Source: Mobula hypostoma (lineage: Eukaryota). Taken from it: a stretch of DNA of 64,000 bases. Location of the stretch: positions 43,340,001 through 43,404,000 of the forward strand of contig NC_086108.1 in assembly GCF_963921235.1 (NCBI RefSeq). Direction: 5' to 3'. This document shows positions 3,645-33,570 of this stretch, one piece after another (position 1 is the stretch's first letter; every line of letters starts with the position of its first letter). Position numbers and translations under genes: made by a program. A model generated the notes under the pieces. It did no database searches, had not been told where the DNA came from, and worked only from the letters and a program-made list of their open reading frames with translations.

Positions 3645-5163
<1,519 letters not shown>

Positions 5164-6111: not shown

Positions 6112-6790
6112 GTATAGTGCATAAAGAGATACTTCAATAATTTATAAAACTTAAATATTTTTGTAAAAATGTATTGATCTCTATTATAATCCTGAAATTA
6201 TTTCCTCCTGCCTTATTTCAGTTGTGCAGCCTCTACGATTGGCTTCTCTAATGCTGGCTGTATGTTGATAGTTAAGTACACAGTCAAATAGTCCCCATGC
6301 TATGGGGTGGGGTGAATTGCAATAATATCTCAAGTATTTCATTGCACTAATCTTGTTCTGAACTTTATAAAAATTACATACGGATTTCACCAAAAGCATA
6401 ATAGCTTCTATTTGGATCATGGTTCTCAATATGACAGTCGTTTAGCACATATCCAATTTAAGTGTCTATCTATATTTCTGTAAATTAATACAAAAATTTC
6501 TTGGATTCCTAGAAATAACATTTTGCCTGGACACATAGAGGTGTGGTCATAAACTTAAATGTGTGAAGACAACACTAAGGCATGTGTTGTATATTGCATT
6601 AGATTTAATGTATTATTTATCTATACTGTTTCACTTGGTCAGGGTTAAGAGGGGATGTTTTAATGCCTGTTTTGACTTGGTAGCCAGTTGTAATCATTGA
6701 AATTTGTTATTTTTAATAAAAATGTGGTTCTGTTGAACAGCACTGCTTTATACTATGTTCTAAAAATCAAATTCCTTCCACGTGTAGCCT

Positions 6791-6853
6791 GTGTCCTCCA
6801 AGAGGACCACAACCTTGTCGTAGGATTTGGAGGCTTGTGTGCCTCAATGAGCC
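6791..6853 (+). ncRNA. Candidate HDV-like self-cleaving ribozyme (degenerate copy)
   Basis: Manual fold: P1 6791-6797/6822-6828, P1.1 CC 6813-14/GG 6829-30, P3 6809-11/6819-21, P4 AGGC/GCCT, J4/2 C6845-A-A, weak P2. Not tested computationally. Confidence 0.45.
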
Positions 6854-7140
6854 AGAGAGCTATGTTGGGTGGAGTCAGGGCTTCATGCTGTGGCTGTTCG
6901 TAGGGTCACCTGTGCCACACAGGTCAAAGGGTAGAGGCCAGACTAAGAGTGATCCACCAGTCCCCCAGGTTCAGGAGTTCAGCTCAGGGTTAACAACCCT
7001 GACTGATTAAAAACAAAATTGTTACGGAAACAGCAATGAAGAATCTTTCTCTGTCTGTATGCGAGGGTATGGACAACAGAGATGGAGGACTTTCATTGCT
7101 GCACTAAATGCCAGCAGTGTAACGAGCAGTAAGTAAATAA
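6791..7140 (+). mobile_element. Short bipartite non-autonomous RTE-type retroelement (5' UTR fused to 3' tail)
   Basis: 7-bp TSD GTAGCCT (6784-6790, 7141-7147); 5' ACCTTGTCGT...GGCTTGTGTGCCTCAATGA resembles RTE/BovB/Expander 5' UTRs; TAAG-type tail; second copy at 33322-33570. Confidence 0.7.
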
Positions 7141-7229
7141 GTAGCCTTGAATAAAGGCATAGAGAATTGTCATAGTCAGTGGTGAAATGATAGTGTAACA
7201 TAGCCGTGAACTTTTATCTCTTTGCTTAG

Positions 7230-7334
7230 CTCATTATTTTCATGGCTCTCGCTAATGGTGTCTCCAGACTAAGAACTGGCCCATTGACCCTTCACACGCA
7301 GACTGCTATGCACTTTGCAGAATTGTTAACTAAG
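7230..7334 (+). CDS. RTCA: RTCA exon ([35 protein letters not shown])
   Basis: Contains TLHTQTA with the adenylated catalytic His; gcttag acceptor, gtcagt donor. Confidence 0.96.
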
Positions 7335-8492
7335 GTCAGTTTGTTTGTTATCCATTATCATTTCTGGCAATATGATTGTTTTTAAATCAATGTTATTTTA
7401 TGGTATTTTCCTTGCAGTTAAAATGAAATCTTTGGAAATATTTTGTCTTTTTTTGGAATGCCTGAAGACCATCATGGGTCACCAGTTCATACCGAAGGGT
7501 TAAATGCAAATCAGTTTTATGCTAACCTTAAATAATTTTCAGGCCAAATACACTACAATTTTGTACTACAATGTTCCCCATCTGTCTCCGGAGACTGAAA
7601 TTGAAGTGCAGCATTTCAATTTCCAATTTTAAATAATATTTCCCCATGGCAGTACTTCACAGAAATCCTAGTAAGTGTGTTGCTATCCTCCATGTGGATA
7701 TCATACCTTGGGTGTCAAATGTATAATTTTGTTGCAGACAGCAATCTTTCAGTTGAAGCGGGGAAAAAGGTAAATGTCATCCATTTTGTTAGTCTGCAGT
7801 AAACTTTAACTTCTGACTCTGTTTCTGTTTGTAATCTTTGAGGGATGGTGTAGAAGGATTTGATAGCTCAAAATGAATAAAATATATTCAGTTTATCATG
7901 CTGTAGGTGTTTTGTAAATAAAGATGCAAAGTATCCATAAAATATCTAGTCTCCATACTGAATAATGTGTTTTCAGTCTGTAAAACACTACTAACAAATA
8001 AAAAGTTATGTTTGACTTGGGACAATTTTTACCTGATGCCTTTTTCACCTCAATTAGAATAAGATAACATGATGTGATACTTAATTCTTTGCCAAACAAT
8101 ATATCTAATTTGACTTTGATCAAAGGCAGAACTGCATCTACTGTATGTGAATGTTGTGCTCTGGATATGGACATGCAAGCATTCGGGGTCAGGCCAAAAG
8201 TTATTAATTAAGGCTTTTTGGTAAATAAAATGGTGGTTAGAGAATGACATTATAAGTTGGCTATAGTATGAGTTTTTGCTGTAATCTGTACTGGAGTATC
8301 CTAATTTAGCTCTTTTCATTTGAATAAAGTAAGCCTAATTAAAATGCTTCCTTGAACTTTCTTTCTGAAGTTACATTTTGTGTTGGTATTCAGGTCCCAG
8401 GAAATGCATGATGTTTCTATAATGACACAGTCTCTTGTACTACAAGTAAGGTGTTAAAACAGGTTTTCATTTTGTTTTGTATTTTCTTTCAG

Positions 8493-33321: not shown

Positions 33322-33570
33322 TCTTCATTGCTGTTTCTGTAACAAATCAGTTTTACCAGGCAGGGTTGTTGGCCCTGAGCTGAATTCCTGAACCTGGAGG
33401 ACAGTGGACCACTATTAGTCTGGCCTCTACCCTTTGACCTGTTTTGCGTGGGTGACCCTACCAGGAGCTAAAGCATAAAGTCCTGACTCCAGCCAACATA
33501 ACTCTTCAGGTCATTGAAGCATGCAAGCCTTCAAACCCTTCTACAAGGTTGTGATCCTCTTGGAGGGTTT
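33322..33570 (-). mobile_element. Second copy of the RTE-type short element (3'-truncated), with candidate HDV-like fold at 33508-33570
   Basis: Aligns to 6791-7042, without gaps over the first 60 nt; P1 AAACCCT/AGGGTTT is perfectly paired. Confidence 0.7.

Follow-up and report, generated by a model that had tools for sequence, protein, structure and literature searches.

A 161-nt HDV-like ribozyme fold predicted at the 5′ end of an old, internally deleted RTE element in an RTCA intron of Mobula hypostoma

The window analysed here is a 64,000-nt stretch of Mobula hypostoma contig NC_086108.1 (positions 43,340,001 to 43,404,000, forward strand). An intron of RTCA in this window carries an internally deleted RTE element of 346 nt (6795–7140, + strand), with 7-nt TSD copies at 6784–6790 (+), identified by sequence and a TSD search, and at 7141–7147 (+), identified by sequence. 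Four extra bases, 6791–6794 (+), separate the upstream TSD from the element; they are unconserved in sets of 31 and 67 copies and are likely an untemplated addition made at insertion, lying outside both the element and its P1 helix. The element is sense-oriented between RTCA exons and lies upstream of the exon at 7228–7335 (+), which is covered by RNA-like contigs and contains a Pfam RTC match at 7230–7334 (+; E 2.5e-7). An initial annotation of this DNA had described a sense insert in an RTCA intron, flanked by a TSD and with G6791 as the first base after it, and the sequence, the Pfam match and the RNA-like contigs bear this out.

A second copy is found on the minus strand at 33322–33566. 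It is 83% identical to the first, has a head that is intact from 33566 and aligns gap-free with the first copy across the head, as had been noted initially; a 3′ tail for it was not found within the 64-kb window. The host genome is 3.48 Gb in size, and a first look returned 6425 candidate copies of the insert, of which 40 were scored, at 82–88% identity. Exact 23–25-nt head patterns gave 568 genome matches for the form with a 7-nt L3 loop and 676 for the form with a 9-nt L3, while reversed controls gave 0. Because two copies occur within 64 kb and thousands in the genome, the RTCA location is unremarkable and needs no special explanation. A link between the cut product, with its cyclic phosphate, and the RTCA host gene was considered and, given this copy density, dismissed as chance. 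Two other repeats share the window. A ~620-nt inverted duplication with 95% identity occupies 3647–5161 in another RTCA intron and holds transposase-like ORF fragments, which we presume from their motifs to be Tc1/mariner-like, and a dispersed family of short repeats has ~10 copies between 11996 and 52782, some arranged as inverted pairs.

Copy alignments place the element's 5′ end at C6795. The commonest base is present in 10–13 of 31 copies at positions 6791–6794 and in 27–30 of 31 at positions 6795–6801. Alignments start exactly at the C6795 equivalent in 55 of 72 copies and within 12 nt of it in 67; in a larger locus set, 88 of 103 matches start within 3 nt of this base (+1). The first 30 loci had been picked by likeness to the whole element, a choice that favours full-length copies and does not create an abrupt boundary. 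TSDs of at least 7 nt were detected in 25 of 67 copies, 11 of which abut +1 while 9 leave 3–4 extra bases, as in the window copy. Among relatives, the shared sequence of five multi-copy families starts at or beside the first base of P1, as judged by eye. The initial annotation had named G6791 as the exact 5′ end and had suggested looking for 5′ ends that pile up at P1 position 1; such a pile-up exists, at C6795 and not at G6791. At position −1, G is depleted (5 of 67 copies), an observation on which we do not rely.

The RNA runs consist of contigs only, which cannot show RNA starts, ends, levels or cleavage, and runs with small shares were not counted. Loose contig ends in three independent runs (X1–X3) pile up at 6794/6795. 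One X2 contig begins at 6795, which a k-mer branch accounts for, its neighbour ending at 6824. Another X2 contig, from a different organism, spans the upstream intron and continues across 6795; therefore, the insertion is shared between organisms and uncut RNA or DNA exists. In run X1, a single contig joins 7120 to 6794, that is, the 3′ part of the element to its first base, which could represent a tandem copy or a circular form.

Both halves of the element originate from an RTE. Positions 6956–7070 (+) comprise the remainder of an RTE 5′ UTR together with the opening codons downstream of an AUG at 7036, assigned by the occurrence of the same head upstream of endonuclease loci. Following a deletion junction at 7070/7071, positions 7071–7140 (+) hold the last ~70 nt of an RTE, with the ORF end and a short tail of 4-nt repeats, assigned by translation and by comparison with relatives. 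All 25 of the 25 RTE endonuclease loci that were fetched from G000 have this head immediately upstream; a search of G000 for the endonuclease family proved too broad. The 3′ part translates as the final residues of an ORF whose C-terminal motifs we take to be those of RTEs, and a longer, broken piece of the parent ORF is 55% and 53% identical to the teleost endonuclease-RT proteins P0001 and P0002. The clade name RTE is used here on the basis of the single endonuclease-RT ORF layout and the presumed motifs and not of a tree with named references. A search for homologues of the N-terminal peptide found none, and the viral collection searched yielded no relatives. The stretch between head and AUG (6956–7035) is hairpin-rich, and its conservation extends to relatives whose head differs (L094, L132, L144); in L094 a tandem repeat (305–500) stands where the ribozyme head would be.

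The architecture is that of a bipartite non-autonomous RTE: its 5′ part comes from the 5′ terminus of an RTE LINE and its 3′ part from the 3′ terminus of that LINE, repeat tail included, and a TSD flanks the whole. The element has no ORF and no tRNA, 5S or 7SL head (no Rfam match), and many copies share junctions. We mapped these junctions in 71 copies, a sample biased by the queries, so that class counts are not frequencies; counted from the first AUG, the 5′ breaks form two groups, at +10 to +32 in 33 copies and at +93 to +133 in 38, and of the 71 3′ breaks, 63 are confined to one 20-nt stretch.

The first 161 nt of the element (6795–6955, +) form a predicted HDV-like ribozyme with a predicted cut immediately 5′ of C6795. 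P1 has seven Watson-Crick pairs, the first being C-G, between 6795–6801 and 6827–6833 (+). P2 (6804–6810 with 6949–6955, +) crosses P1 and has a C-A mismatch at 6807/6952 in the window copy. P3 (6812–6814 with 6824–6826, +) is broken here by A6825 and is capped by L3 (6815–6823, +), which has 9 nt in this copy and 7 nt in the sister subfamily, with U, C and G at positions 1, 5 and 6. P1.1 is one pair, G6817-C6834 (+). A structured P4 domain of ~100 nt (6841–6938, +), identified by covariation in helices 5–9, column counts and RNAalifold, starts with an outer helix (6841–6845 with 6934–6938, +) that contains C6845, continues through a bulge (6846–6850/6932–6933, +) and a G/A-rich internal loop, and ends in a branched inner part. 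J4/2 (6941–6948, +) contains the predicted catalytic C6943 followed by U-A-A.

To assemble relatives of this region, a 28-ORF alignment was used to search metagenome contigs; 80 of 486 matching loci were fetched and the 55 with an ORF start were used, 24 of which match the window 5′ part by blastn at ~65–80%. The working alignment (A3) combines 5 own copies with 14 relatives, 12 found by blastn and two, L136 and L140, by a generic HDV descriptor. Left out were near-duplicates (L121, L123, L126, L127 and L164), sequences that were cut off or did not contain the first part (L093, L103, L104, L105, L119 and L161) and sequences with only the downstream part in common (L094, L132, L144 and L160). 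On these 19 rows, 90.9% of 755 cells of the 161-nt fold are paired, compared with 36–53% in slid controls, and 30 of 40 pairs show two-sided changes. Cells with two-sided changes number 110 versus 37 in shuffles, and 0 of 500 shuffles were as good on all five measures; five of the rows are sister copies, and relatedness alone can beat shuffles. The fold includes a revision of P4 made after RNAalifold. The first version gave 86.8% paired cells and two-sided changes in 25 of 41 pairs, and two of its parts were replaced: an inner P4 helix (6848–6852 with 6922–6926) that had no two-sided change and a small P4 hairpin that was 68% paired.

Individual helices behave as expected for an HDV-like double pseudoknot. 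P1 was also tested alignment-free because MAFFT shifts its 5′ strand by 1–3 columns in some rows; in 15 sequences, 102 of 105 pairs form, versus a permutation mean of 84.7 and a maximum of 96 (100,000 permutations). All seven P2 pairs show two-sided changes, with 88.7% of cells paired. P3 is paired in 96.5% of cells and is nearly invariant, which is conservation and not covariation. P1.1 is paired in 19 of 19 rows, as G-C in 15 and as A-U in 4, the A-U rows falling in separate clades of a quick tree; in an all-pairs column ranking, which at 13–19 rows is too noisy for single-pair support, it ranks 14th of 11,198 and 22nd of 11,197, below several pairs outside the model. L3 retains U in 19 of 19 rows, C in 17 and G in 18 at positions 1, 5 and 6, and is 7–8 nt long in 15 of 19; the C-N-R-A motif of J4/2 retains C in 18, R in 18 and A in 19 of 19 rows. 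RNAalifold, given no structure, returned P2, P3 and three P4 helices, whereas the window copy, folded by itself in a model without pseudoknots, does not outperform its shuffles (z 0.17). Covariation is thus observed at the level of the P1, P2 and P4 helices and conservation in P3, L3 and J4/2; single pairs of the fold are not individually secure.

The family has a 7-bp P1 at its first base, a P2 of at least 5 bp that crosses P1, a 3-bp P3 stacked beside P1, the L3 bases, a one-pair P1.1, within the one to two pairs given in PMC3185411, and C-N-R-A just ahead of P2. The published descriptor specifies L3 U, C and G at positions 1, 5 and 6, C-N-R-A, a G1-Y first pair and a CC/GG P1.1 (PMC6326823, in part); the family departs from its strict form by a C-G first pair and a single G-C or A-U P1.1. 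Rfam at gathering level gave no match in the window and only chance matches in eight copies, and on five relatives it returned one weak HDV match (L102, E 0.82). A generic HDV descriptor run over RTE 5′ regions gave scores of at least 14 in 21 of 55; among the controls, reverse complements reached this score in 2 of 55 cases and shuffles in 4 of 165.

The ~100-nt P4 is conserved across RTEs whose ORFs share 45–70% identity and that are scattered over the quick tree, which serves here only to show the scatter of the long-P4 form across an RTE subgroup. Its bulge has 3 nt followed by G (18/19) and A (19/19) opposite A (18/19) and U/G, a pattern that we take to resemble a kink-turn. The 9-nt L3 occurs in about half of the own copies, the window copy included, and is absent from the relatives; the start position is kept in 43 of 44 copies with the 9-nt loop and in 31 of 36 with the 7-nt loop. 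Six sister RTEs (L095, L096, L102, L109, L111 and L134) have textbook HDV-like ribozymes, with G1 and CC/GG, at their 5′ boundary 200–320 nt upstream of the ORF, the one in L102 measuring 72 nt. These sisters are scattered among the long-P4 families on the quick tree, and ribozyme heads may have been repeatedly swapped or remodelled among RTEs. Two further HDV-like candidates measure 77–95 nt (L115:1204 and L147:72); in both, the single P1.1 pair is in the opposite order, C-G, and the long P4 is missing.

The two ends of the element are predicted to pair with each other. The proposed stem joins 7031–7041 to 7091–7101 (+), 11 bp within a longer stem capped near the deletion junction. In 18 of 24 full-length relatives, those with the anchor motif and including two pairs of near-duplicate rows, duplexes between each sequence's own 5′ and 3′ ends sum to −539.5 kcal/mol, versus a permutation mean of −392.8 and a minimum of −484.0. 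The own 3′ end ranks first among all 3′ ends in 9 of 18, and three rank poorly (8th, 12th and 16th). Our model of the family has the two ends paired in a covarying stem. Both arms are kept in all mapped forms, and only the short form joins near the apex; the idea that the junction always lies at the apex fits the ~345-nt form and not the ~430-nt form, and was rejected.

The genomic copies themselves are decaying. Their mean divergence is 10%, and the whole core is intact in only 5 of 89. The catalytic C is retained in a fraction of 0.90 of copies versus 0.89 for other non-CpG C, and the L3 CpG decays like another CpG; since the catalytic C is retained no better than other C, inserted copies decay neutrally, and selection on the fold acted in source elements and not in inserted copies. 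The window copy retains 7 of 7 P1 pairs, 6 of 7 P2 pairs, 2 of 3 P3 pairs and C6943. Judged from its sequence, it is probably inactive because P3 and one P2 pair are broken and copies decay neutrally, and we consider it unlikely that it still cuts. The second copy has a P1 mismatch at 33563/33531, has lost the L3 C and keeps the catalytic C at 33418.

We favour, with good confidence, a reading in which 6795–7140 is an old bipartite non-autonomous RTE copy that inherited, in its first 161 nt, an HDV-like fold which probably cut the RNA of the source elements just before C6795; this confidence applies to the element family and not to the window copy. A source copy would have been transcribed inside a host transcript, and the fold would have cleaved the RNA 5′ of C1 with the equivalent of C6943 as general acid. 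The freed RNA may have been held end-to-end by the 7031–7041/7091–7101 stem while the reverse transcriptase of the parent copied it from the 3′ tail, insertion producing a TSD and a few extra bases. Short forms likely arose by a jump in copying that left the 3′ arm at its top and resumed in the 5′ part.

The initial annotation had drawn a different HDV-like ribozyme, a 63-nt fold that starts at G6791 and uses C6845 as the catalytic C. The letters given as its P1 and P4 are present, both window copies accommodate the drawing, 31 of 31 copies retain C6845, and the P4 hairpin of that fold appears in minimum-energy folds. Four of its P1 bases, however, are flank, and two of its seven P1 columns are gapped in 15 of 19 aligned rows. 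The covariation check that had been suggested for it gave 72.6% of 215 cells paired versus a shuffled mean of 70.9%, with 74 of 500 shuffles as good and two-sided changes in 3 of 13 pairs versus 3.5 expected. In the column-pair ranking, one pair of this fold is 5th with 13 rows but drops to 625th with 19. A T-A to C-G replacement reported in the second copy combines an unconserved flank base with a G>A at 6825 that 4 of 31 copies carry; by a hand product of column counts, ~9% of copies should match perfectly over the four flank bases, as the second copy does. C6845 is a P4 base that pairs with G6934 in 18 of 19 rows. The departures listed with the 63-nt fold (an L3 starting with A, CAAU in J4/2, imperfect P2 and P3, GA at P1.1) all vanish in the corrected register. 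What endures from that annotation is the short RTE-derived element and, very likely, the HDV-like 5′ end; nearly all structural details give way, as P1, P1.1, P2, P3 and P4 are different helices in a fold of 161 nt and not 63 nt. The 63-nt fold is already refuted as the family structure, and we give it almost no weight.

The main rival to the reading we favour is an internal polymerase II promoter that starts transcription at +1. The fold would then be real but serve RNA protection, translation or protein binding, and cleavage would be weak or lost, if perhaps only among copies with the 9-nt loop. A single 77-nt stretch of L1Tc acts as promoter and as ribozyme alike, and its start site and cut site coincide (PMC3185411, in part). 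Although it differs from all 14 relatives, the 9-nt L3 subfamily keeps the common starting base in 43 of 44 copies, and conservation of the ~100-nt P4 exceeds catalytic need, P4 being variable and dispensable in the ribozymes of PMC3774820 (in part). By contrast, conservation across RTEs of 45–70% protein identity is among the highest at the core bases (L3 U, C and G; C-N-R-A), and at +1 the pairing of P1 is conserved while its primary sequence is not. We regard the promoter alternative as improbable, if well above the two structural ones. The other structural alternative, a twister variant, is prompted by the Schistosoma element Perere-3, an RTE whose tail is similar and whose head is a twister (PMC8501958, in part), and by a stretch within P4 that loosely resembles twister L4. 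That stretch, however, lies ~115 nt inside the element within covarying P4 helices, and elements of the T-variant start with AA beside the TSD, whereas window-type elements start with C. The Rfam twister model had no match in the window, eight copies or five relatives, and a twister head seems to us very improbable.

Beyond cleavage itself, we raise as a tentative possibility, doubtful as a whole, that the family represents an undescribed and widespread RTE-specific HDV-like form (C1-G, one-pair P1.1, missed by Rfam and strict descriptors), in which the ~100-nt kink-turn P4 would be a conserved second functional module for protein binding or cap-free translation and a stem closing the RTE RNA would explain two-ended mini-elements. 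The literature searched, mostly as titles and without Ruminski et al. 2011 and its supplement, the likeliest place, gave no description of the long-P4 form, its kink-turn or the end-to-end stem.

Ribozyme-headed RTEs and bipartite RTE derivatives are already known, and the single locus is ordinary and probably dead. What the analysis contributes is a structure, backed by covariation, for RTE 5′ ends across a broad subgroup; current Rfam models miss it. Under the tentative reading above, the spread of a form with a 9-nt L3 would mean that the active site tolerates more than is known so far. RTE UTRs also find use as templates for gene writing, and their optimisation in such systems has been empirical (PMC13708176, in part).

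Bipartite, ORF-less non-autonomous RTE LINEs include the RTE-N families, RTESINE1/2, WALLSI3 and Bov-A (Kojima 2018, PMC5786205). The window element belongs to this class; motifs of its family were not found in the supplement of that paper, which gives no structure. That paper leaves open why bipartite elements come from RTE, Ingi/Vingi and R2 alone; a ribozyme-defined 5′ end combined with an end-to-end stem offers a testable answer. Published work already reports ribozymes at the 5′ ends of RTEs (PMC5786205; PMC6765202 and PMC3774820, in part): the RTE HDV-like ribozymes of Ruminski et al. 2011, as relayed by these three papers, share the clade, the position and an expected cut at the 5′ junction. 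Large peripheral domains occur in J1/2 of ribozymes excerpted from PMC4908430 and PMC3774820, while here the large domain is P4 and J1/2 has only 2–4 nt. Twister heads on RTEs are also known (PMC8501958 and PMC7761336, in part) and do not fit the window element. L1TcRz, found in L1Tc/NARTc and SIDER, cuts before C1, as is predicted here, has a single-pair P1.1 and sits on autonomous and internally deleted forms (PMC3185411 and PMC4035085, in part), and the C1-G first pair with a single P1.1 occurs in the active L1Tc ribozyme (PMC3185411, in part). As described in the same partial sources, L1TcRz belongs to the trypanosomatid Ingi clade, is ~77 nt long with a short P4 and is a shown promoter, whereas the present fold is RTE-borne, 161 nt long and predicted. 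R2 ribozymes and R2 SIDE elements share the topology and free the element from a host co-transcript; according to the same portion of PMC3774820, R2 is rDNA-specific, often with target-derived P1 bases and a variable P4, whereas here P1 is wholly element-encoded and P4 is conserved.
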